A stretch of 64,000 nucleotides of DNA from a virus. The DNA lies in the IMG/VR virus record IMGVR_UViG_3300032240_002475, positions 1-64,000 of that record, one strand, 5' to 3'. Below the pieces are notes generated by a model, which searched no databases, was not told the origin of the DNA, and was given only the letters and a program-made list of their open reading frames with translations. This document shows positions 18,850 to 29,086 of the stretch, one piece after another (position 1 is the stretch's first letter; each line of letters begins with the position of its first letter). A program made the translations under genes and the position numbers.

Positions 18850-19338
18850 TTAATAAACAAATGATTTTTGATATTCATTCCAAACCTTTTGGACACTTGC
18901 ATTCTCACCAACTATTGTTGGTGTAAATGGTTTATGTTTCATTGGCATTTTAGCTTCTTCAGGAGTTTTACTTCCTTTCTTAAGGTTACATTTAAAACAA
19001 GAAGTAACCAAGTTTGTCCATTCATTTCCACCACCCCTTGATTTAGGAATAACGTGGTCTAAAGTCAAATTTTTATTTGACCCACAATAAACGCATTCAT
19101 AATTATCCCTCTTATAAATTCTTGGTCTACTTGCCCTTAAAGTCCTTACGTGATGTCTAATGTATTTTAGTAATCTAATAATTAAAGGGCGCACGTATGT
19201 TTTGTATCCAGTGATAATAGGTGATTCGTCTGATTTAATAACCTCAGCCTTACCTTTATCAACCAACACAAATCCCCTCCTAATACTTGTAATATTCAGG
19301 GGTGTGTAATCATAATTTAATACTAGCACAGTACTCAT
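18850..19338 (-). CDS. HNH endonuclease (McrA-like)
   Basis: VLVLN, RD..CVYCG, TLDHVIPKSRGG..WTNLV..C..CN.KK. Confidence 0.9.
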   Translation of the reverse strand: MSTVLVLNYDYTPLNITSIRRGFVLVDKGKAEVIKSDESPIITGYKTYVRPLIIRLLKYIRHHVRTLRASRPRIYKRDNYECVYCGSNKNLTLDHVIPKSRGGGNEWTNLVTSCFKCNLKKGSKTPEEAKMPMKHKPFTPTIVGENASVQKVWNEYQKSFVY

Positions 19339-19382
19339 TTAATCCAATTTTTACAAACTTAAGTGATTTAGATAATAAAAAC

Positions 19383-19412
19383 AAAAAAGGGGTCAATTTT
19401 ATCGACCCCTTC
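19383..19412 (-). terminator. intrinsic terminator after a short leader ORF
   Basis: Minus strand AAGGGGTCGA-TAAAA-TTGACCCCTTTTTT. Confidence 0.75.
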
Positions 19413-19426
19413 TATATACTCATGAT

Positions 19427-19528
19427 TTAGCAAAAGTTTATGGTTCGAGATTTTCCAATTCTCAATACATCCGAGTTCTCATATTTTTGGTTAGTTCCCA
19501 AAAGACACGTTATTTTGTCTATCATCAT
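19427..19528 (-). CDS. short ORF / possible leader peptide MMIDKITCLLGTNQKYENSDVLRIGKSRTINFC
   Basis: 33 codons between a TATTTAT motif and a terminator. Confidence 0.45.
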   Translation of the reverse strand: MMIDKITCLLGTNQKYENSDVLRIGKSRTINFC

Positions 19529-19594
19529 TACAATAAATATCCATAAAAATTTCTCAAAATCAAATTATTTTTATATCTTTGTAAAAAAACGAAT

Positions 19595-20356
19595 ATGAAA
19601 CTAAAACAATTATTTGTCGGATTTATTTCCTTATCAGTAATCCTTGCATCTTGTTCCAAAGAAGAATCTTATGTGCCAAAACAAGAGGCCGTTACAGAAA
19701 CTATGTCTGTTGCCCCGATGGCAACGACAACTGTTGCAACTTCAGTTGAAACTCCAAAGGCATATATTTTTATTGAGCCTCAATCAAAACTTAGTTTAAT
19801 TGTTAATTATTTAAAAACGACACCTCACAGTGTTCAAACAACATTAAACACACCATTCTATGGGTTTTTTACTGGGTCACCAATCAAAACAACAAATTAC
19901 ACTGACTTGTTAAATTATGTTGATATGCCGTATTGGTATAATGGAACATTACCTTCAGTTGTTCAATCAGAAATTCCACAATCGTCTGGTGGTGTTGATT
20001 CATATGGTAACACAAAAACCGCATATAACTTTTTAACTATCAAAATTAATAAAGGAACCCTTGACGAATATGCATGGGTTACAGTTTTAATTCCAACAAG
20101 TGCAATGTCAAATGACAGTAAAAAACAAGTTAAAATTGCTTACTACAGTAAGAACGAAAATGTTATAACATCAAGTGGTAATAACACTCAGACAGTTTTT
20201 AGTACTAATTCTACGTTATATTCTTATGTATTAAATTACACAGGAACACGTATTCCTAAAGGACAATATAGAGTATATAGTACTTATGGTGGTACTGAAA
20301 TGAGAGTTAAATTTAACACTACAAATGACGTTTATTTCAGAGGAGCATCGAATTAA
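19595..20356 (+). CDS. putative lipoprotein
   Basis: LASC lipobox followed by SKEE; TATCTTTG box upstream. Confidence 0.75.
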   Translation: MKLKQLFVGFISLSVILASCSKEESYVPKQEAVTETMSVAPMATTTVATSVETPKAYIFIEPQSKLSLIVNYLKTTPHSVQTTLNTPFYGFFTGSPIKTTNYTDLLNYVDMPYWYNGTLPSVVQSEIPQSSGGVDSYGNTKTAYNFLTIKINKGTLDEYAWVTVLIPTSAMSNDSKKQVKIAYYSKNENVITSSGNNTQTVFSTNSTLYSYVLNYTGTRIPKGQYRVYSTYGGTEMRVKFNTTNDVYFRGASN

Positions 20357-20390
20357 TTGACTTTGGGTATATTTATATTATTATAAGACT

Positions 20391-20489
20391 ATGGAAAACA
20401 TGAACTTAAATACTAATTTGGGCACACCGACAACTCCTAATGGAGATGGGGGCACTATGTGTTTATGTTCAGAGGCAAGTGGTTGGTAA
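20391..20489 (+). CDS. tRNA-operon leader peptide 1 (MENMNLNTNLGTPTTPNGDGGTMCLCSEASGW)
   Basis: 32-codon ORF; residues 5-22 are 16/18 N,T,P,G,D, matching the downstream tRNAs. Confidence 0.75.
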   Translation: MENMNLNTNLGTPTTPNGDGGTMCLCSEASGW

Positions 20490-20510
20490 TTAAAAATAAA
20501 GCCAAATATT

Positions 20511-20543
20511 AAAACCCTGAACATTGAAAGTTCGGGGTTTTTT
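20511..20543 (+). terminator. attenuator terminator 1
   Basis: AAAACCCTGAAC-ATTGAAA-GTTCGGGGTTTTTT; its 5' arm also pairs with ATGTTCAG at 20465-20472. Confidence 0.85.
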
Positions 20544-20563
20544 ATTTACCTTTGTTAAACAAT

Positions 20564-20637
20564 CGGAGAGTAGTACAGTCAGGTAGTATGCTTGGTTTGG
20601 GACCAAGAGGTCGTAGGTTCGAATCCTGCTTCTCCGA
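20564..20637 (+). tRNA. tRNA-Pro(TGG)
   Basis: CGGAGAG acceptor; CTTGG-TTTGGGA-CCAAG; GGTTCGAATCC. Confidence 0.93.
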
Positions 20638-20645
20638 CATAAATT

Positions 20646-20717
20646 GTCTCCTTAGCTCAGTGGTAGAGCTCTTCGCTGTTAACGAAGAAGTCCAAGGTTC
20701 GAATCCTTGAGGGGACG
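20646..20717 (+). tRNA. tRNA-Asn(GTT)
   Basis: CTTCG-CTGTTAA-CGAAG; standard D and T arms. Confidence 0.93.
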
Positions 20718-20801
20718 CGACGGGTAGGGTGGAAAAAATTTCCAATGTTGTAGTATCGTGGATGGAGAAATCCTGAAGCATAAACGGACAAAAAGAAAGA
20801 A

Positions 20802-21287
20802 ATGAAGAGAAAAGTTTTCTTATTGACGTTAGTGTTGTTCTTTATAGGTTCACCACTAAAAACAAGTGAGATGTTGGCACAAACAAAAGAAAATGTTCAA
20901 GAGAACATAACACATGAAAGTTTGTACGAACAGATAATTAAATTTGGTATTAAATTTCCTGATGTTGTGTTTGCACAAGCAGTATTAGAGTCAGGAGATT
21001 TTACCTCAAAGTTATTCCAATCAGCGAACAACTTGTTTGGTATGAAAATACCATCAGAACGTGAATCAGCGGCAATTGGTCAAACCAAAAGCGGGTATTC
21101 AAAATATGACGATTGGAATTTTAGTGTATATGATTACTTTTTGTGGCAAGATTATATGTTAAAAAAACATGGTGATTTGACAAAATCTCAGTATCTTGCA
21201 CTACTTGGTAGGATATATGCTGAAGACAAAAAATACATTAGTAGTATTAAACGAGTAATCGGAGAGCACCAAAGTATTTTGAATTAA
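20802..21287 (+). CDS. glucosaminidase (GH73/FlgJ-like) peptidoglycan hydrolase with signal peptide
   Basis: AQAVLESG, NNLFGMK, YAEDKKY motifs. Confidence 0.85.
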   Translation: MKRKVFLLTLVLFFIGSPLKTSEMLAQTKENVQENITHESLYEQIIKFGIKFPDVVFAQAVLESGDFTSKLFQSANNLFGMKIPSERESAAIGQTKSGYSKYDDWNFSVYDYFLWQDYMLKKHGDLTKSQYLALLGRIYAEDKKYISSIKRVIGEHQSILN

Positions 21288-21290
21288 AAT

Positions 21291-21364
21291 GGGATGTTAG
21301 TAGAGTTGGTTACAATGCGTCCCTGTCACGGACGAGGTCACGGGTTCGAGTCCCGTACGTCCCG
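21291..21364 (+). tRNA. tRNA-Asp(GTC)
   Basis: CGTCC-CTGTCAC-GGACG; GGTTCGAGTCC. Confidence 0.93.
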
Positions 21365-21421
21365 CAAAGCAGATAAAATGTGTAGTAACTGCAGAGAAGG
21401 TACCTCTCACTACACTCTTAA

Positions 21422-21494
21422 GCGGAAGTAGCTCATTTGGTAGAGCACCGTCCTTCCAAGTCGGGGGTGGCCAGTTCGAGCCTGGTCTTCCGCT
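21422..21494 (+). tRNA. tRNA-Gly(TCC)
   Basis: GCGGAAG/CTTCCGC acceptor; loop CTTCCAA. Confidence 0.92.
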
Positions 21495-21546
21495 CATAGG
21501 GTCTGAGGGAGTCCCTTAAACGGATAAATAACGTGTCCCTCTCATT

Positions 21547-21620
21547 GCTTCCTTAGCTCAGCAGGCCAGAGCAACTGATTTGTAATCAGTAGGTCGTCAG
21601 TTCGATTCTGACAGGAAGCT
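21547..21620 (+). tRNA. tRNA-Thr(TGT)
   Basis: ACTGA-TTTGTAA-TCAGT; GCTTCCT/AGGAAGC acceptor. Confidence 0.93.
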
Positions 21621-21634
21621 CAAAATTTTTATTT

Positions 21635-21868
21635 ATGAATATTTTTATTGCTTATTACGTTATATGCGTAATTTATTGTTTCTATCAGTTATTTAAAAAC
21701 CTTAGTAAAAGGTATAGTGATGACCCAACAGGTGGTTCGCCTGAATTAGATACTATCATGGTTATTATGATGGCTTGGGTCTTAGCACCTATTGATGTAT
21801 CTTTGACTTGGATTAGATGGTACAAAGAAGCAGAAATTGCAAGAAAAAAACACACAAAAGTTTTTTAA
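21635..21868 (+). CDS. small membrane protein
   Basis: Two hydrophobic segments. Confidence 0.6.
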   Translation: MNIFIAYYVICVIYCFYQLFKNLSKRYSDDPTGGSPELDTIMVIMMAWVLAPIDVSLTWIRWYKEAEIARKKHTKVF

Positions 21869-22216
21869 ATGGCACACCCTAATGTACATGCTAAATCATC
21901 CGCCAAAAAATTTGGTGGAAAACCAGAAGATTATATTCATCTCCATGAATGGTTAGATGAAACAAAAGGATGGTTTGGGGATTCTCTTCATAGAATGTTT
22001 AGACATCATAGTGAAGGTATTTTTGAGATGGAAAAACGTTTTGGTGTTGAATTTAAAAACAGTGATGGTAAAACAGTTTACACTCGATATGTTGGTGAAC
22101 AACATGTAAAAGAAGATTGTAATAACTATATCCCATCAGCCAAAGAATGGGTTAATAACATTACAACAAACCAAAGACCTCAATGGATGACCAGAACACT
22201 TAAACTGGAAGACTAA
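21869..22216 (+). CDS. DUF6915-like His-rich protein
   Basis: MAHP..HAKSSAKKFGG..EDY..H.W.D..K...HR..RHH.EG, EQHVKED. Confidence 0.7.
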   Translation: MAHPNVHAKSSAKKFGGKPEDYIHLHEWLDETKGWFGDSLHRMFRHHSEGIFEMEKRFGVEFKNSDGKTVYTRYVGEQHVKEDCNNYIPSAKEWVNNITTNQRPQWMTRTLKLED

Positions 22217-22227
22217 TATTTATTATC

Positions 22228-22968
22228 ATGGCAAGAAGAAAAGTAAATTCGTTTAAATTATTAACTCCTGAAGATAAGCAATATCTTAGAAGAGTTTGTA
22301 GATACTTAGGTTCACTCGGAATGCAAGACGGTAGCATTGAAATGGATATAGATACTGGTTTTGATTTTGATTTTTCTGATATTTATTGGGAAGAAGAAAC
22401 TCATTTTTCAAATAACTACAGCGCTGAAGTTCCTGATGGATTGACGCCAATCTTTAAAAAAATTGCAGATTACATCCAAGAAAATGATATATTTCAAAGT
22501 CCTAATGATGAGGAATTAAATTATGAAAGAATTGATTTTGATATTGATTGTGAAAGACAAGAATTATCTGTAAATCATTGGTGGACTTTCTATGCTAGAG
22601 GTGATGGTAATAGTGTTACTTGGGATGCCGAAGAAGATAAAGAAATGTTTGAAGAGTGGGAAAAAGATGGTGTTTTTGAAGACCTTACAATTCCTGATAA
22701 TGGAATATTAACCGTAAAATATAATGGTTCTGGTGATTCTGGATATATTGAGAGTAGTTTTGAAGAAACTTCCGACGGAGTTCCTACATCAATAGAAGAT
22801 TGGTGTTACAATCAACTTGAAAGAAATTTTGGTGGGTGGGAAATTAATGAAGGTTCTGATGGTGAATTTATATTCAATTTCCATGATACGACTATCGAAT
22901 TGAATCACACTTATAATACTGAAGAAAACGCAACTGACACTATCTACGAAGAAAGTTTTGCCGAGTAA
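22228..22968 (+). CDS. acidic hypothetical protein (DUF6878-like C-terminus)
   Basis: YNGSGDSG...GWEINEGSDG pattern. Confidence 0.6.
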   Translation: MARRKVNSFKLLTPEDKQYLRRVCRYLGSLGMQDGSIEMDIDTGFDFDFSDIYWEEETHFSNNYSAEVPDGLTPIFKKIADYIQENDIFQSPNDEELNYERIDFDIDCERQELSVNHWWTFYARGDGNSVTWDAEEDKEMFEEWEKDGVFEDLTIPDNGILTVKYNGSGDSGYIESSFEETSDGVPTSIEDWCYNQLERNFGGWEINEGSDGEFIFNFHDTTIELNHTYNTEENATDTIYEESFAE

Positions 22969-23012
22969 TCCTTTGATTTATTAATTTAAATTCCGTATCT
23001 TTGTTATACATT

Positions 23013-23086
23013 GGTTCGGTAGCTCAGTTGGATAGAGCAACAGCCTTCTAAGCTGTGGGTCAAAGGTTCGAATCCTTTCCGAATCA
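23013..23086 (+). tRNA. tRNA-Arg(TCT)
   Basis: ACAGC-CTTCTAA-GCTGT; own TATCTTTG box at 22996. Confidence 0.93.
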
Positions 23087-23198
23087 CAATATCATATCTT
23101 CAGGTACCCGTACCGCTAACGTAGGGTTAAATAAGATACAATTTCGTACTGCATTTGTGTAGGAGCGGGAAGTAGAATGCCTGTCTGATGTGATACAT

Positions 23199-23279
23199 AC
23201 CCCGTTGGTGGAATTGGTAGACACGCTGGTTTTAGGCACCAGTGCGAAAGCGTTAAGAGTTCGAGTCTCTTATGGGGTA
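23199..23279 (+). tRNA. tRNA-Leu(TAG)
   Basis: CTGGT-TTTAGGC-ACCAG; variable arm; TGGTGGAATTGGTAGACAC D-arm. Confidence 0.93.
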
Positions 23280-23293
23280 CAACAATTTAAGAT

Positions 23294-24010
23294 ATGTACG
23301 TACAAAACCCTTTAGTTCCCACCAGCCAAGAAAATTTATTTCATTTGGCGCCTATCCCTGTTTATATGAAAATATTTGGGGATGATGAACTTCATGATGA
23401 GGTTTATACTTTTGGGTTTGATAATTTGACCGAGCAACAAAAGTTAATGGGTCAAGAACTTCCAGAACAATACGATTCATTAAGACAATCAAATTACTTT
23501 GTAAATTACGACAGGAGAGAAATGTGGGTAGAACCTACAGAGTATAATCCCATTGGTAGTCGTTTTTGGACTCCTCCTAACGACTTTCTTAATACAGACA
23601 CACCAAATATCAAAACAATAAGAAACAGGGTAGAAAAGGGATATATGGAGCTTTTAGATATGTTAGGATTTCAACACAATAGAAAACCAAATATTACTGA
23701 GAGTTGGATTCAATATTATAACCCAACAGATGGCCGAGGTCATAATGCACACAATCATTGTAGATGGCAACCAAATGAAGAAACCATTTCCAATTTTTCA
23801 GGTGGTTATTATTTGTCTGATGGTGACCCTATTGCCGACCATCCTTATAGTGGTGTATTTACGTTTCATGTTAGAGGAATGTCTTATTTTATTAGACCTA
23901 AAAAAGGTATGTTAATCATTTGGCCATACGACATTGTCCATTCAGTTAAACCATTTTATGGTAAAACTCATAGATGTGTAATTAATTTTAATATCCAAGA
24001 TTCAATATGA
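23294..24010 (+). CDS. putative 2OG-Fe(II) oxygenase (TIGR02466-like)
   Basis: SW..Y, HNAHNH, SGGYY, P..G.LIIWP..HSV.P, R.VINFN. Confidence 0.8.
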   Translation: MYVQNPLVPTSQENLFHLAPIPVYMKIFGDDELHDEVYTFGFDNLTEQQKLMGQELPEQYDSLRQSNYFVNYDRREMWVEPTEYNPIGSRFWTPPNDFLNTDTPNIKTIRNRVEKGYMELLDMLGFQHNRKPNITESWIQYYNPTDGRGHNAHNHCRWQPNEETISNFSGGYYLSDGDPIADHPYSGVFTFHVRGMSYFIRPKKGMLIIWPYDIVHSVKPFYGKTHRCVINFNIQDSI

Positions 24011-24585
24011 AACAAATAGATTTAGATATTTTTGTGTTTCCAAAAATCATGTCTAATGAACTTATCGAAAGATTAATGTCCATTAGAAATAAAAGTGACT
24101 TTGATGGTAGATTAGATTTACACATTGAGGACAAAAACACTTTTTACATCTTTGATAATTTTTGGTTTTCCGAAATTGAATCACAGTATTTAAATCATTA
24201 CTTCAACACATATAATGTTGAAAGAGGTATAGGTTTGAATACCAGTGAAGATACAATAAAAGAATTAAAAAAATTCGTTGAAACAAAATGGAGAGATTTA
24301 TTCTTATTACATTATGCACCTCATGTTATGAATAAGGGTGAAAAAGATACTCACTGGGATTTTAGTGGATTAAGTATGGTTGGTTGTTTAACTGATGATT
24401 ATGAAGGTGGACAACTAATTTTTCCAAGACAGAGTGTAAGTTATAGATTAGATAAAGGAGACATTATAGTATTTCCAGGTGGATTAACTCACCCACATTA
24501 CGTTGAACCAATAACCAAAGGTTTTAGGGATGTGATTGTGGGACAAAGTCTTACAATAGAACAAAACCACAAAATTGATTATTAA
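24007..24585 (+). CDS. 2OG-Fe(II) oxygenase
   Basis: HWD, DYEGGQL.F, FPG..THPH.V..IT.G.R. Confidence 0.85.
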   Translation: MKQIDLDIFVFPKIMSNELIERLMSIRNKSDFDGRLDLHIEDKNTFYIFDNFWFSEIESQYLNHYFNTYNVERGIGLNTSEDTIKELKKFVETKWRDLFLLHYAPHVMNKGEKDTHWDFSGLSMVGCLTDDYEGGQLIFPRQSVSYRLDKGDIIVFPGGLTHPHYVEPITKGFRDVIVGQSLTIEQNHKIDY

Positions 24586-24587
24586 TT

Positions 24588-25244
24588 ATGGTAAGTAAAA
24601 AAGAAAAATTGGTTTTTTTGACCCCGCCAAAAACAGCGTCAACTTCATTTAATTATTGTTTGGATTCTTCTCCAATTAAATTTGATAATTTTGATAAAGA
24701 TTATCATAAACCAAAAACACATTTGTTTCTTTCTGAATTAGTTGAATGTTTTAATATCGAGAATATTGAAGAATATAAAATTATTCAAATTTTAAGGGAC
24801 CCATATGAAAGATTTGTATCGGCTTACCATCATTTTTTAGCGTTAATACCAATAACCTATAAAATAAGGGAAATGAAAATAAATGAATTTATTGTTTTTT
24901 ATAAAAATTGTTTGGAAAGCGATGATTTCATTTCTTGTATGTATGAAGACCCTGAATATGTTCAAGCATTAATTTCCCAAAAAATAAATTTTGGAGGAAG
25001 TAGGTATTTTATACCACAAGTAGATTGGAATGATTTAAATTTAAATGTTAATTATTTTAACTTGAATGACATATCAAAAGACGTATCAAAAATTTCTAAC
25101 TTTATCGGATTTGATTTAAAAGAATTAGGTGTTAAAAATGTAAATCCTGAAAGAAAACCTGCAAAAGATGTTTTGTCTGAGGAATCAATTAATATAATTA
25201 AAAATCTTTATAAGAAAGATTTTTTGACTTTTGAGAAACTTTAA
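24588..25244 (+). CDS. sulfotransferase family 2 protein
   Basis: PKTASTS 5'-PSB motif and RDPYERFVSAY 3'-PB motif. Confidence 0.85.
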   Translation: MVSKKEKLVFLTPPKTASTSFNYCLDSSPIKFDNFDKDYHKPKTHLFLSELVECFNIENIEEYKIIQILRDPYERFVSAYHHFLALIPITYKIREMKINEFIVFYKNCLESDDFISCMYEDPEYVQALISQKINFGGSRYFIPQVDWNDLNLNVNYFNLNDISKDVSKISNFIGFDLKELGVKNVNPERKPAKDVLSEESINIIKNLYKKDFLTFEKL

Positions 25245-25253
25245 CTATATTTG
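25223..25253 (+). promoter_or_regulatory. Bacteroidota sigmaA-type promoter for leader 2
   Basis: TTTG-N19-TATATTTG. Confidence 0.6.
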
Positions 25254-25269
25254 ATGTAATTATAATAAC

Positions 25270-25356
25270 ATGAACACTACAATGCAACATATAAGTTTTA
25301 GTCATCAACAAGAAATTTGTTGGTATGAAGCTATGCTTTGTAGTTCGGTCGTGTAA
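25270..25356 (+). CDS. tRNA-operon leader peptide 2 (MNTTMQHISFSHQQEICWYEAMLCSSVV)
   Basis: 28-codon ORF containing codons for all eight downstream tRNA specificities. Confidence 0.8.
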   Translation: MNTTMQHISFSHQQEICWYEAMLCSSVV

Positions 25357-25387
25357 TAGATAAGTAATTCCTGAAGAATTAATATAC

Positions 25388-25425
25388 AAACCCTGAACGA
25401 CAGAAATGAAGTTCGGGGTTTTTTT
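25388..25425 (+). terminator. attenuator terminator 2
   Basis: AAACCCTGAAC-N12-GTTCGGGGTTTTTTT; same stem as terminator 1; 5' arm can also pair with GTAGTTCGG at 25340-25348. Confidence 0.85.
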
Positions 25426-25463
25426 GTTATTTGAAATATTGGTTGTATCTTTGTGAAACAAAC

Positions 25464-25537
25464 GCTCCGTTGGACAAATCGGTTAAGTCGCATCCCTTTC
25501 ACGGATGAGATTACGGGTTCGAGCCCCGTACGGAGTA
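25464..25537 (+). tRNA. tRNA-Glu(TTC)
   Basis: CATCC-CTTTCAC-GGATG. Confidence 0.93.
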
Positions 25538-25604
25538 CAAATGACAAAGTTGGAAGTAAAACCTGTCCAAAGTCGGAAGTAAAAACAAGACAAAATCGGA
25601 AGTT

Positions 25605-25820
25605 ATGAAATATATTTTTAGAGGACATACTGTTTTTGAATATAAAGCAGATGATAAAAGGGATAAAATAGTTCAAGGAAAGATTCATGACGCAATTCCA
25701 GCGTTTGATTATTGTCATATGATTCCTGAGGACTATAAATTGTTAGGAGAATTTTTCAACACAGTTTATAGGCACACTCAGGGAGAAGATGTACCTTTGG
25801 AAGATATTGAAGTGTATTAA
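25605..25820 (+). CDS. hypothetical protein
   Basis: ORF between tRNAs. Confidence 0.55.
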   Translation: MKYIFRGHTVFEYKADDKRDKIVQGKIHDAIPAFDYCHMIPEDYKLLGEFFNTVYRHTQGEDVPLEDIEVY

Positions 25821-25821
25821 T

Positions 25822-25894
25822 GGTGACGTAGCTCAGTTGGTAGAGCACTTGCCTGAAGAGCAAGGTGTCGTCGGTTCAATTCCGACCGTTACCA
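25822..25894 (+). tRNA. tRNA-Phe(GAA)
   Basis: CTTGC-CTGAAGA-GCAAG. Confidence 0.92.
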
Positions 25895-25969
25895 CGGAGT
25901 CCCGAATTAACGGGAAACCCCCACTCCCATATGGCAGCCAGTCCGTTAACCTGGTGAAGTGGGGTAGGA

Positions 25970-26072
25970 TGTTAAGTAGTAGATATGTAAGCGGGCACAG
26001 GGCTCGGTAAATCGAAATGGTGATGATTCTCTTTACGAGACTACATTGTGGGTTCAAATCCCACCTTAACAA
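25970..26072 (+). ncRNA. tRNA-like RNA (acceptor + T-arm, non-canonical core)
   Basis: TGTTAAG/CTTAACA stem stacked on GTGGG-TTCAAAT-CCCAC. Confidence 0.55.
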
Positions 26073-26104
26073 CAAATAAATTAGTAGGATATAAAATAAA
26101 TGAT

Positions 26105-26338
26105 ATGAAAGCGATACTTGAATTTAATTTACCTGATGACCAACAAGATTTTGAGTTGGCAACTAAAGGAATGAAATTTTGGTCAGTCCTATGGGAATTA
26201 GACCAATCTTTAAGGGCTAAAACAAAATATGCTCCCGACAGTTTGCCTCAGGATAAGTACGACGCTTATCAAGAAATTAGAGATGAACTTCGTGAGTTAA
26301 TGTCAGATAATAATCTTAGTTTTGATATGGTTAAATAA
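26105..26338 (+). CDS. conserved phage hypothetical protein
   Basis: MKAILEFNLPDD start typical of small phage proteins. Confidence 0.65.
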   Translation: MKAILEFNLPDDQQDFELATKGMKFWSVLWELDQSLRAKTKYAPDSLPQDKYDAYQEIRDELRELMSDNNLSFDMVK

Positions 26339-26344
26339 AAAAAT

Positions 26345-26551
26345 ATGGAAAAAATAATACAAAATTTAGTTGAAGAAACGGGAAAATTATTAGTAGCTCG
26401 TTCAGAAGATATTGGTTATTATGGTGATATAAGTGATTTCGGAAATGAAGTTGGAGTTGTTGTAGGTCAACACTTCAAGAAAAAACAAGACATTGAAGAT
26501 TTCATCACAGGATTGAGACATGGTATTTCATTAGTAGACGGAACACATTAA
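26345..26551 (+). CDS. hypothetical protein
   Basis: ORF with A-rich leader. Confidence 0.6.
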   Translation: MEKIIQNLVEETGKLLVARSEDIGYYGDISDFGNEVGVVVGQHFKKKQDIEDFITGLRHGISLVDGTH

Positions 26552-26561
26552 AAATAAAAAA

Positions 26562-26777
26562 ATGAAAGTGGTAGTAAAAAAAGACAGTATAGATATTTTT
26601 CCTCACCTTTATGAGGGTACGGTATTACAGGATGTTAGAGAGAAAGGTATGAATTACGTTGGAGTTTTTACTTCTGTCTTTGGTTCCTATTATGTTGAAA
26701 TACCTAAAAAAAGGTGTAAAAAATATAAGGAGAAAAAAACATTAAATGGTCAGTTGGCCGAGTGGCTTAGGCGATAG
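26562..26777 (+). CDS. hypothetical protein (3' end overlaps tRNA-Cys)
   Basis: ORF with A-rich leader. Confidence 0.5.
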   Translation: MKVVVKKDSIDIFPHLYEGTVLQDVREKGMNYVGVFTSVFGSYYVEIPKKRCKKYKEKKTLNGQLAEWLRR

Positions 26778-26819
26778 TCTGCAAAACTATTTACACAGGT
26801 TCAAATCCTGTACTGACCT
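26748..26819 (+). tRNA. tRNA-Cys(GCA)
   Basis: ATAGT-CTGCAAA-ACTAT; U73. Confidence 0.92.
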
Positions 26820-26827
26820 CAAAGAAT

Positions 26828-26900
26828 GCGTGTGTAGCTCAATTGGTAGAGTACTAGTCTCCAAAACTAGGAGTTTCAGGTTCGAGTCCTGACATGCGTG
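26828..26900 (+). tRNA. tRNA-Trp(CCA)
   Basis: CTAGT-CTCCAAA-ACTAG. Confidence 0.92.
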
Positions 26901-27038
26901 CTAAAGGTTGATTGGGGAATGATGATGTAAAAACCTGGTAGTGGTTGGAATAAGACATCGTCGGAGTTTAAACTACCATGAGTAATGCCAATCATAAAAG
27001 GAGATGTCCACTGAACCATCTTCTCCTTTCCTTAATTT

Positions 27039-27121
27039 GGGAGTGTTGTCAATGCGGTAATTGGCACCTGACTGTAAATCAGGAGTCTTAGACTTCGGCG
27101 GTTCGAATCCGTCCACTCTCA
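27039..27121 (+). tRNA. tRNA-Tyr(GTA)
   Basis: CCTGA-CTGTAAA-TCAGG; variable arm. Confidence 0.92.
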
Positions 27122-27128
27122 CAATTTT

Positions 27129-27202
27129 GGACTTGTAGCTCACTCGGTTAGAGCGGCACACTCATAATGTGAAGGTAGTAGGTTCGATTCCTACCTGGTC
27201 CA
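27129..27202 (+). tRNA. tRNA-Ile2/Met(CAT)
   Basis: Loop CTCATAA; GGACTTG acceptor and TAGCTCA..GGTTAGAGC D-arm resemble lysidine tRNA-Ile2. Confidence 0.88.
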
Positions 27203-27205
27203 CAT

Positions 27206-27276
27206 TGTCCTTTAGTATAACGGTAGTACAGATGGTTTTGGTCCATCTAGTTGGGGTTCGAATCCCTGAGGGACAA
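27206..27276 (+). tRNA. tRNA-Gln(TTG)
   Basis: U1-A72 pair; GATGG-TTTTGGT-CCATC. Confidence 0.92.
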
Positions 27277-27376
27277 CAAAAAGTAATATATGACTAATAT
27301 TTGTACAATACATGAAACACTTTTAGATAAAGATGGAAGTTGCCCAAAATGTTTGGAAGAAAGTAATAAGTAATAT

Positions 27377-27451
27377 GGTGGATATAGCTCAGTTGGTAGA
27401 GCGCTAGATTGTGGTTCTAGTTGTCGCGGGTTCGAGCCCCGTTATTCACCC
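27377..27451 (+). tRNA. tRNA-His(GTG)
   Basis: G-1/C73; CTAGA-TTGTGGT-TCTAG. Confidence 0.93.
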
Positions 27452-27471
27452 ACATCGCCATATTTATATGT

Positions 27472-27933
27472 ATGGAAAAAAAAGTAATGTTAACTAAAGA
27501 ACAATTATTTAAAGTAATACATTTAAATGAGGCTGAAAATAAAGAAGAAACAACAGAAACTGCGGATGTTGTTGATATGATTGCAACATTACTTCACTCA
27601 AGAAGTCAAGCACATATTTTTCATTGGCAAACTAAATCACAATCTTCATTTGCCGAACATATGGCATTAGGTACGTATTATGAAGAAATTGTTGAATTAA
27701 TTGATGGTATTGTTGAAAGTTACCAAGGAAAACACGAATTAATTACAGGATACAAAACAGTAAAAATGGTTGATTATAAATCAACAGAGCAATTAATAAG
27801 TTATTTCAAAGACTTAGATAATAATATTGAAAAGAATAGAAAAGCAGTCAAAGAATCTTATATTCAAAATCAAATTGATGGAATTCAAGAATTAATATAT
27901 TCCACATTGTACAAATTAAGATTCTTAAAATAA
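27472..27933 (+). CDS. ferritin/Dps-like four-helix protein (DUF5856-like)
   Basis: H.FHWQT..FAEH.AL..YYE...D..VESYQG, TLYKLRFLK; start trimmed past tRNA-His. Confidence 0.75.
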   Translation: MEKKVMLTKEQLFKVIHLNEAENKEETTETADVVDMIATLLHSRSQAHIFHWQTKSQSSFAEHMALGTYYEEIVELIDGIVESYQGKHELITGYKTVKMVDYKSTEQLISYFKDLDNNIEKNRKAVKESYIQNQIDGIQELIYSTLYKLRFLK

Positions 27934-27954
27934 TTATTAATAAAATAGGATTTA

Positions 27955-28620
27955 ATGAAAAGAATTATCAAATTGACTGAACAAGACCTTAATAGATTGG
28001 TTAAAAGAGTTATAAAAGAACAACAAGGCCAAGGTCCTTGGTTTGGAAGAGCACCTGGTCCCGCTTCATTGGGAGTTCGTGAAGTTAAAAGACCAATCAA
28101 AATGGATGGTTCTTTATTTGCAAATGGTATTGATACTATTGATACAAATAGCCAACAATTCAAACAAGGAGTTGATGCAATTAAAAGTGCATTAATGAAA
28201 TCCAAAAATTTAGAAGTTGATGTTCAAGGAGGAGCTTCTGCAGTTGGTAGTAACTCAGGATATGACAATAAATCATTAGCAACGAGAAGAAGTTCCAATT
28301 TTATTAAAGCAATTAAACCCATTTTCCCTAATGTGACTTTTAATGTAGGTACACCTATTGTAGGAACCGCAACAACAAAGAATTCACTTGAAGCAAATGC
28401 CGAACAATTTGTAAAACTTTCATTCAATACTACAGATACTGACTTATATCAAATTCCAGCTGTTGACAACACTGCAAACGCAATGATAAGAATCAACCCT
28501 AATAAAAAGTTGACTCCTAAACCAAATGAATCTACAGTTACAAAATGTGTTAAAATACCAGCTAGTCAAGTAGCCATGTTTGAAAAAATTGCCAGTTCAT
28601 TAGGATTGATTATTACGTAA
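27955..28620 (+). CDS. probable virion protein with OmpA-C-like region
   Basis: N-terminal IIKLTEQDLNRLVKRVIKEQ motif; DN.SLATRR. Confidence 0.6.
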   Translation: MKRIIKLTEQDLNRLVKRVIKEQQGQGPWFGRAPGPASLGVREVKRPIKMDGSLFANGIDTIDTNSQQFKQGVDAIKSALMKSKNLEVDVQGGASAVGSNSGYDNKSLATRRSSNFIKAIKPIFPNVTFNVGTPIVGTATTKNSLEANAEQFVKLSFNTTDTDLYQIPAVDNTANAMIRINPNKKLTPKPNESTVTKCVKIPASQVAMFEKIASSLGLIIT

Positions 28621-28639
28621 TTTTTTAATACAATATAGT

Positions 28640-28810
28640 ATGGGACAATATAGATATACAATAGCACATTATGCTGACGGTCAATTAGTTAGACCTGAAT
28701 TTTTTACTGATTCATTAGAAGAAGCTCAAAAGATTGCTTCAATGTATGAAGGATGTGTTAGAGTTTATGATGAAGAAGGAAACATTATCATAGACAACGA
28801 TGTTCAGTAA
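28640..28810 (+). CDS. small hypothetical protein (56 aa, not in ORF track)
   Basis: MGQYRYTIAHYADGQLVRPEFF...DVQ*. Confidence 0.55.
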   Translation: MGQYRYTIAHYADGQLVRPEFFTDSLEEAQKIASMYEGCVRVYDEEGNIIIDNDVQ

Positions 28811-28912
28811 ATCTTAAAAAAAACTTAAAAAAAATTGACTATTTCACAATCAGTCTTTATATTTATAGTCTATTAAGTTAATCAAAACATTAAATTAAAA
28901 AACAAAAAAAAC

Positions 28913-29086
28913 ATGAAAAAAATCGTAGCATTATTTGCAATCGTAGCATTGGCATCTTGCGGAACAGGAGCATCAACTGAAGTAAAATCTGATTCAACTG
29001 CTGTTGTAGTAGATTCAACTAAGAAAGATTCTACAGTTGTACCTGTAGATTCTGCAAAAGCTGAAAAAGCAGCAGAAGTTAAATAA
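28913..29086 (+). CDS. small lipoprotein (57 aa, not in ORF track)
   Basis: MKKIVALFAIVALASC lipobox, A-rich leader, downstream terminator. Confidence 0.8.
   Translation: MKKIVALFAIVALASCGTGASTEVKSDSTAVVVDSTKKDSTVVPVDSAKAEKAAEVK

Follow-up and report, generated by a model that had tools for sequence, protein, structure and literature searches.

A predicted leader-peptide attenuator in front of a phage transfer RNA gene block

Why should a block of phage transfer RNA (tRNA) genes be preceded by a short open reading frame (ORF), rich in codons for the amino acids of those very tRNAs, and by a transcription terminator? The question is raised by the region around positions 20,360 to 21,620 of the IMG/VR virus record IMGVR_UViG_3300032240_002475. 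The source contig, assembled from a metagenome, comprises 122,290 base pairs (bp) with 32% G+C and 17 tRNA genes, and its first 64 kilobases (kb) are the stretch analyzed here (the window). In this window, a 32-codon ORF (leader 1) and an intrinsic terminator stand ahead of the genes for tRNA-Pro, -Asn, -Asp, -Gly and -Thr, and a second ORF (leader 2) with the same terminator stem stands ahead of another tRNA block. After comparing the leaders with their relatives and folding their transcripts, we consider it likely that the element is a working ribosome-mediated (leader-peptide) transcription attenuator that gates read-through into the Pro/Asn/Asp/Gly/Thr block. The parts of the element and its surroundings are as follows.

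20368..20376, plus strand: candidate leader promoter TATATTTAT, 15 nucleotides (nt) before the ATG, with presumed promoter function
20391..20489, plus strand: leader 1 ORF MENMNLNTNLGTPTTPNGDGGTMCLCSEASGW, 32 codons and a stop
20402..20413, plus strand: segment 1 GAACTTAAATAC, pairing with segment 2 in the minimum-free-energy fold
20403..20456, plus strand: sensor codons 5-22, of which 16 of 18 encode Asn, Thr, Pro, Gly or Asp and the other two Leu
20464..20476, plus strand: segment 2, the antiterminator strand TATGTTCAGAGGC, ending 11 nt before the stop
20500..20506, plus strand: spacer box AGCCAAA after the stop codon, kept in 15 of 16 rows of the alignment of type T1 leaders (types are described below)
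20511..20543, plus strand: intrinsic terminator, consisting of segment 3 AAAACCCTGAAC, the 7-nt loop ATTGAAA, segment 4 GTTCGGGGTTTT and a T run
20524..20554, plus strand: candidate internal host-type promoter TTG-N20-TACCTTTG, overlapping the terminator, with its TACCTTTG box at 20547-20554
20564..20718, plus strand: tRNA-Pro(tgg) and tRNA-Asn(gtt), starting at 20564 and 20646
20802..21287, plus strand: ORF of 161 amino acids inside the tRNA block, with endolysin-family matches and a hydrophobic N-terminus
21291..21621, plus strand: tRNA-Asp(gtc), tRNA-Gly(tcc) and tRNA-Thr(tgt), starting at 21291, 21422 and 21547
25270-25356: leader 2 ORF MNTTMQHISFSHQQEICWYEAMLCSSVV, in an element at 25223-25462, before the genes for tRNA Glu/Phe/Cys/Trp/Tyr/Met/Gln/His

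Two leaders and two tRNA sets in one genome

The composition of leader 1 is one of the features on which the original prediction of an attenuator was based, and it was found as described: the five amino acids that fill 16 of the 18 residues at positions 5-22 are those of the five tRNAs located downstream. The original prediction also held that chance was an unlikely source of this match. With a background of 0.299 for the summed frequency of Asn, Thr, Pro, Gly and Asp among the residues of the long ORFs of this genome, the binomial probability of at least 16 such residues in 18 is 3.3e-7. In a six-frame scan of the genome, 71 of 90,956 stop-free stretches of 18 residues reached 16/18, and all 71 lie at four places, namely leader 1 and three genes with Thr/Pro tracts at 91-94 kb.

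Leader 2 provides an internal comparison. The two cassettes can be aligned with a mean column identity of 73%, and their codon sets are disjoint. Leader 1 has no Gln, His, Phe, Tyr or Ile, and leader 2 has no Pro, Gly or Asp. When the leader residues were set against the two tRNA sets, the counts were 20:4 versus 4:14 (Fisher P = 1.1e-4). The terminator stem is common to both leaders, and CCCTGAAC...GTTCGGGG occurs in the 122,290-bp genome only at 20515 and 25391. Both leaders encode 'LCS' at the antiterminator position, where ATGTTCAG (20465-20472 in leader 1) is perfectly complementary to CTGAACAT in the 5′ arm of the terminator. Leader 2 additionally has a host-type promoter box, TTTG-N21-TATATTTG, upstream and a second host-type box between its terminator and the tRNAs, a strong hairpin between segments 1 and 2, and a small extra spacer hairpin (AATTC...GAATT). 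The sequence-level features named in the original prediction were thus all present, and their conservation in relatives with co-varying content (see below) supports its interpretation as an attenuator.

From this layout, a putative mechanism can be outlined. Transcription would start about 10-15 nt before the ATG, and a ribosome would translate the 32-codon leader while RNA polymerase proceeds. With fast decoding of the Asn, Thr, Pro, Gly and Asp codons, the ribosome would reach codons 25-33 or the stop and cover segment 2, whereupon segments 3 and 4 would form the terminator and transcription would end at about 20543. If the charged tRNA for any one of them is scarce and its decoding slow, the ribosome would stall within codons 5-22, segment 2 would pair with segment 3 (the 2:3 helix), the terminator would be blocked, and the polymerase would continue into the tRNA genes. 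The new tRNAs would in turn speed the decoding of the leader and close the switch, amounting to negative feedback on tRNA supply; a basal amount, not subject to this control, would come from the internal host-type promoter.

Leader composition and tRNA content among relatives

Relatives of the element were gathered by a scan with the terminator pattern, two scans with conserved leader stretches and one with a neighbouring protein. The exact terminator pattern was matched in 35 viral contigs (36 matches), and tRNA genes lay within 3 kb downstream in 30 of the 35 viral loci (31 of the 36 matches), mostly within 13-65 nt. For the same pattern at 120 loci of bacterial and archaeal genomes, a downstream tRNA on the same strand was found in 1 of 123 matches, and that sole exception (L064) is itself a case of a leader before a tRNA array. 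In total, 63 loci and the present genome yielded 83 elements of a short ORF with a terminator. Five elements had no recorded tRNA, and the leaders with tRNAs behind them comprise 42 distinct peptides. In these 42 variants, frame, start and stop are retained, and the first tRNA is at most 70 nt away in 36 of them; the distance from the end of the ORF to the terminator is 21-36 nt in most elements. The leaders fall into several types.

Type T1 (17 leaders, leader 1 included): ...TPTTPNGD(G/A)G..., before Pro/Asn/Asp/Gly/Thr(/Ala)
Type T2 (14 leaders): ...H(I/M)VFSKQQEICWYE.M..., before Glu/Val/Phe/Lys/Cys/Trp/Tyr/Met/Gln/His...
Type T3 (5 leaders): MRTTLLHTLLLDRQGLLRRLMP, before Leu(taa)/Arg(tct)/Leu(tag), with codons TTA, CTT/CTA and AGA
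Mixed type (several leaders): before large mixed tRNA arrays
L064: MRNLSLHSLSYLYLHSVGSGDILM, before His/Ser/Ser/Tyr/Leu (four times)

Composition was examined in 37 of the 42 elements, with the exclusion of five cut-off loci for which no more than three tRNAs were recorded. A binomial enrichment calculated for each element was uneven, mostly through cut-off loci, and was replaced by frame and permutation tests. In the ORF frame, a tRNA gene for the same amino acid lies downstream for 585 of the 851 sensor residues (69%), compared with 38% and 31% in the two other forward frames and 33-46% in the three reverse frames. When the tRNA clusters were permuted among the elements, the match averaged 376.5 and reached at most 477, with none of 5000 permutations attaining 585; as the sequences are related, these counts overstate independence. 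The distinct leader types, together with the phage phi17:2 described below, are more independent evidence than the pooled counts. In genomes with more than one element, 17 of 20 comparisons showed a leader to fit the tRNA cluster behind it better than the other one, the exceptions being two cut-off clusters and one tie.

The same correspondence can be followed within types. T2 leaders contain a codon for 116 of the 117 amino acids that have a downstream tRNA. Lys beyond residue 2 is found in all nine T2 leaders with tRNA-Lys and in neither of the two complete clusters without it (a 9/0/0/2 table); leader 2 of this window is one of the two Lys-free cases and reads HISFSH, compared with HIVFSK in relatives. 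Among T1 leaders, L171 has GDGG and no tRNA-Ala, and L036 has GDAG and a tRNA-Ala. At the codon level, the downstream anticodons can read 238 of 321 split-family codons under strict wobble, compared with 195 expected from codon usage. The distribution of variable columns over the three codon positions (9/8/14 in T2 and 2/2/2 in T3) gives at most a weak sign of translation, on which our interpretation does not rely; the count for T1 was spoilt by an offset of one codon in a single row.

A cultured phage extends the pattern to unrelated sequence. In blastn searches, the region 19500-23300 matched deposited phages at the tRNA level only, and the two leader regions gave weak matches only, one of which pointed to Cellulophaga phage phi17:2 (NC_021798.1). 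This phage has a TAnnTTTG-type box followed by an unannotated ORF, MKIQRLHLQELEQPIISGGTGV, and a different terminator (GCCTCTC...GGGAGGC with a T run) directly before tRNA genes for Pro, Glu, Gln, His, Leu(tag), Leu(taa) and Arg(acg). Residues 4-14 of MKIQRLHLQELEQPIISGGTGV all belong to this tRNA set, its Arg codon is CGT, and the ORF contains GGGAGG, the bases of the terminator 3′ arm. A second leader, (V/M)QLTKTGITVIDKTKGARAYLGDTVIG, with its own terminator, precedes Ala/Lys/Ile/Gly/Met/Asp/Thr/Val/Arg(tct)/Met/Tyr; 23 of its 26 residues are in the tRNA set, and its Arg codon is AGA. A third small ORF, gp078, stands before Ser/Asn/Trp/Phe and includes two Trp, two Asn, one Phe and one Ser, with no clear terminator seen. 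As two such leaders are present in the cultured phi17:2, the idea is open to bench testing now.

Two observations concern the terminator scan itself. The hairpin ACCCTGAAC...GTTCGGGGTTTT is a common bacterial terminator, with more than 120 matches (loci L041-L160), for example downstream of a locus conserved in many Psychrobacter and of an RNA-like stretch conserved in Chitinophagaceae; therefore, the sequence of the stem alone does not set phage leaders apart. L064 (JAVTWD010000016.1, 4444-4586) lies on a 375-kb contig of a metagenome bin labelled Bacteroidota and may represent a prophage or a large phage that ended up in a bacterial bin.

RNA structure, promoters and competing explanations

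The folding energy of leader 1 was -44.7 kcal/mol (z = -3.9 relative to shuffles, of which none of 200 was as good), and the predicted fold consists of a hairpin across the ORF followed by the terminator. The terminator stem is G+C-rich, 12 bp long, and followed by a T run. It is kept in all 16 rows of the T1 alignment, all 11 stem pairs are retained in relatives, and one stem position is U-G or U-A within T1 and C-G in other types. The best duplex between segment 2 and the terminator 5′ arm has a predicted energy of -12.7 kcal/mol. A segment complementary to the 5′ arm, with the core GTTCAG or GTTCGG, occurs in 41 of the 42 elements, located 2-27 nt before the stop or, in T3, 5-12 nt after it. 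Changes on the two sides are matched: ATGTTCAG/CTGAACAT in this window, L002 and L020, AGGTTCAG/CTGAACCT in L001, L013 and L021, GTGTTCAG/CTGAACAC in L031, AAGTTCAG/CTGAACTT in L171, and GATTCAG/CTGAATC in L180. For the 16 T1 leaders, RNAalifold predicted the terminator only and neither the 2:3 helix nor the 1:2 helix (segment 1 with segment 2); therefore, both helices were tested as named structures. In the 16-row T1 alignment, 82% of the cells of the 2:3 helix pair, compared with 5-47% when the partner is slid; three of its pairs are changed on both sides, and its covariation score was reached by 9 of 500 shuffles. For the 1:2 helix, 67% of the cells pair in the 16 T1 relatives, compared with 19-42% when slid.

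The effect of a translating ribosome was modelled by masking its footprint at each codon and folding the transcript up to segment 3. With the ribosomal A site at codons 2-21, the probability of the 2:3 helix was 0.8; it was 0.59, 0.25 and 0.11 at codons 22-24, 0.02 at codon 25, and 0 from codon 26 onwards. The window that permits the 2:3 helix (A-site codons 2-21) coincides with the enriched codons 5-22.

For initiation of the leader transcript, the types differ in the sequence that they keep upstream of the ATG. In T1 and T3 leaders, TATATTTA(T) is conserved at -15 to -23, and in T1-type relatives TATATTTA is found 15-23 nt before the leader ATG in 12 of 16; in most T2 leaders, a host-type TAnnTTTG is conserved at -24 to -26. 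The motif of leader 1, TATATTTAT, is present nine times in the genome. A shorter motif, TATTTAT, stands just before the ATG of three Thr/Pro-rich genes on the plus strand of the genome beyond the window (89045-95456). The Thr/Pro-rich genes at 89-95 kb contain 12-24% Thr and 6-10% Pro, encoded mostly by ACA and CCA, which are the codons that the tRNA-Thr(tgt) and tRNA-Pro(tgg) of the phage read. If TATTTAT is a late promoter, leader 1 would be co-expressed with genes that create the demand for its tRNAs.

The genome's promoter boxes resemble TTTG-N19-21-TAnnTTTG, which we take to be the Bacteroidota-type promoter consensus. The internal promoter TTG-N20-TACCTTTG and its overlap with the terminator had been raised originally as a caveat, and the caveat is correct without being fatal: a TAnnTTTG box follows the terminator in 29 of the 42 elements, and none does so in the other 13. 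A box of the same type, TTTG-N20-TATCTTTG, stands alone at 22972-23003 ahead of tRNA-Arg, as originally noted. In L036, L171, L178 and L021, tRNA-Pro begins 9-13 nt after the terminator, a spacing that leaves no room for a promoter, and therefore read-through is needed there. As the box is present in some elements and absent from others, we propose two inputs, a basal promoter where there is one and regulated read-through.

A further box, GTTCTTTGA[AC]ATATTGG (25430-25442 in this window), lies between the terminator and the first tRNA in many elements (L005, L007, L014, L028, L033 and others). In mixed-type loci it is the sole conserved feature before the first tRNA, with no TAnnTTTG box there. 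The box may be a promoter of another type or a signal in the pre-tRNA leader.

Besides the relatedness of the sequences mentioned above, several observations weigh against the attenuator. Ala is not a clean marker, being present in the leaders of five of the ten complete T1 clusters that have no tRNA-Ala. Beyond residue 2, leader 1 has 19 sensor codons for Asn, Thr, Pro, Gly and Asp; under strict wobble, the phage anticodons can read 12 of them but not the other 7 (listed as ACT three times, GGC twice, and CCT). Because the core helices vary so little, support from covariation is modest, and it is weak for the 1:2 helix, whose score was reached by 37 of 500 shuffles. With segment 4 included in the masked folds, the terminator is favoured at equilibrium at every ribosome position; therefore, the switch must be kinetic, as in classical attenuators. 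In the ribosome-free fold, the probability of the 2:3 helix is 0.80 for leader 1 and 0.01 for leader 2, and the 1:2 anti-antiterminator is therefore weak here. The internal promoter box, present here and in other elements, means that the tRNAs need not depend on read-through. Sequencing runs searched with the region 19500-27600 included no RNA run that contains this DNA. Finally, Flavobacterium phage immuto was tried as a further case and rejected, since its ORF of 51 amino acids before Ser/Glu/Gln tRNAs has no terminator and no clear codon match.

Three other explanations have to be considered. The ORF and terminator could be a self-contained mini-gene or an insulator, with the tRNAs made only from the internal promoter. 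Such a view is favoured by the host-type box between the terminator and tRNA-Pro, by the box of the same kind that alone would drive tRNA-Arg, and by the frequency of TAnnTTTG boxes behind the terminators. However, it leaves unexplained why the amino acids of the leaders track the tRNA set within and between genomes and why a complement of the terminator arm stands at a fixed distance from the stop; moreover, it does not suit the 13 elements that lack the box, in four of which tRNA-Pro follows the terminator so closely. We therefore regard it as improbable. A somewhat smaller chance is given to an untranslated RNA switch, acting through protein- or RNA-controlled antitermination or as a small RNA, with frame and composition as by-products. 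Against it stand the frame, start and stop retained in the distinct variants, the restriction of the match with the tRNA set to the ORF frame out of six, and the leaders of phi17:2, in which the same match goes with unrelated sequence and another terminator. The leader reaches the threshold of no Rfam family: in a cmscan search of 19000-29000 at E <= 1, only tRNAs scored above the gathering score, no leader or T-box family did so, and the leader itself gave only a sub-threshold hit to ohsC_RNA (30 bits compared with 50, E = 0.26). What an untranslated switch would account for is the conservation of segments 1-4 at the nucleotide level, the fold that surpasses those of shuffled sequences, and boxes such as AGCCAAA, which T1 leaders retain irrespective of the frame of the preceding codons.

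A chance resemblance between leader and tRNA set might be suspected from the shortness of the ORF, the AT-richness of the genome and the Thr/Pro/Asn-rich stretches that occur elsewhere in it. We find this hardly credible, given the low binomial probability for leader 1, the confinement of all other such six-frame stretches to the genes with Thr/Pro tracts, the fit of the second leader of the same genome to a disjoint tRNA set, and the failure of any permutation to reach the family-wide match. The ribosome-mediated attenuator remains our preferred explanation.

Relation to known systems and genomic context

In enterobacteria, leader-peptide attenuators can be multivalent: the thr leader senses Thr and Ile, and the ilvGMEDA leader senses Ile, Leu and Val. 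Other classical leaders are trpL, hisL, pheL and leuL. What makes leader-peptide attenuators sensitive is reportedly the subject of PMC1183508. Similar to the enterobacterial attenuators, the element described here has a short ORF rich in regulatory codons (its translation is predicted), an intrinsic terminator with a U run, and four segments predicted to allow alternative 2:3 and 3:4 pairings and, less surely in leader 1, a 1:2 pairing; a ribosome at the stop would cover segment 2, and one leader is predicted to sense several amino acids. It differs in that the regulated genes would be phage tRNA genes, plus one endolysin-like ORF, rather than biosynthetic enzymes. Therefore, the product fed back would be the decoder itself, and we did not count the element among the known leader families. 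A leader samples as many as 14 amino acids, each by 1-5 codons, compared with runs of one or two amino acids in enterobacteria, and the setting is of the Bacteroidota host type, with TAnnTTTG promoters, no Shine-Dalgarno sequence and no sequence similarity. The predicted device has all the sequence-level hallmarks of an attenuator except two, as the 1:2 helix is weak here and the targets are tRNA genes. Pfam has no family that matches the leader peptides.

T-box riboswitches of Gram-positive bacteria respond directly to uncharged tRNA and regulate genes of aminoacyl-tRNA synthetases as well as amino-acid genes. The present element resembles them as a terminator/antiterminator switch that would report the state of specific tRNAs. 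However, a T-box binds tRNA by a specifier codon and the T-box sequence without translation, whereas here an ORF is present and Rfam gave no T-box match. In Mycobacterium tuberculosis, small ORFs with Cys codons are said to report the cleavage of tRNA-Cys by VapC4 (reportedly the work of Barth et al. 2021 PNAS). The subject of bioRxiv 10.1101/834739 is reportedly polycysteine leaderless short ORFs in mycobacteria. In both the mycobacterial ORFs and, as predicted, the phage leaders, ribosome stalling reads out the supply of tRNA or amino acids and controls downstream genes; the mycobacterial ORFs control bacterial stress or cysteine genes, whereas here viral tRNAs would be the output.

In the open full-text literature, with supplements and subscription journals outside the scope, we found no description of leader-peptide control of tRNA genes, and the available portions of PMC6409571, PMC3082878, PMC10264068 and PMC5335546 contain no mention of leader ORFs or tRNA-gene attenuation. 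A possible Phe-rich leader of the Escherichia coli tRNA-Phe genes was tried as a candidate and, for pheV, rejected, as the region upstream of pheV in MG1655 is a promoter-like stretch with no leader ORF; the literature on pheU/pheV attenuation yielded nothing relevant.

The purpose of phage tRNA genes is a long-standing question, for which codon compensation, the replacement of degraded host tRNAs and the escape from tRNA-cleaving defences have been proposed. The last of these is argued in PMC10264068. We speculate, as an evenly balanced proposal, that Bacteroidota phages, and probably others, run a tRNA-supply homeostat, in which each tRNA block stands behind a test ORF that samples its codons and is switched on when decoding slows. 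The trigger could be the phage's own demand, an idea based on the TATTTAT promoter-like motif that leader 1 shares with Thr/Pro-tract genes of up to 24% Thr, or it could be host defences that cleave tRNAs. If this is true, the element would be the first case of attenuation in which the molecule being sensed is also the product under control, it would let a virus detect tRNA depletion directly, and phages would measure their tRNA supply and respond to the measured level. Hypotheses on phage tRNA genes would become testable by a single read-out, namely terminated versus read-through leader RNA, and leader-peptide attenuation would be extended to RNA genes, viruses and Bacteroidota-type expression signals.

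As for the source genome, it has genes for a terminase, a T4 gp20-like portal and a major head protein and therefore belongs to a tailed phage; judged by the portal protein, its nearest cultured relative is Flavobacterium phage immuto (40% identity). The 161-residue ORF between tRNA-Asn and tRNA-Asp occupies the same position in relatives, with 71% identity. On the minus strand at about 3035-2905, the region upstream of tRNA-Met includes a stretch of about 115 nt whose ends are complementary in an acceptor-like way (GCCAGAG...CTCTGGC); ARAGORN called no tRNA in this stretch, which is possibly an odd tRNA-like RNA.

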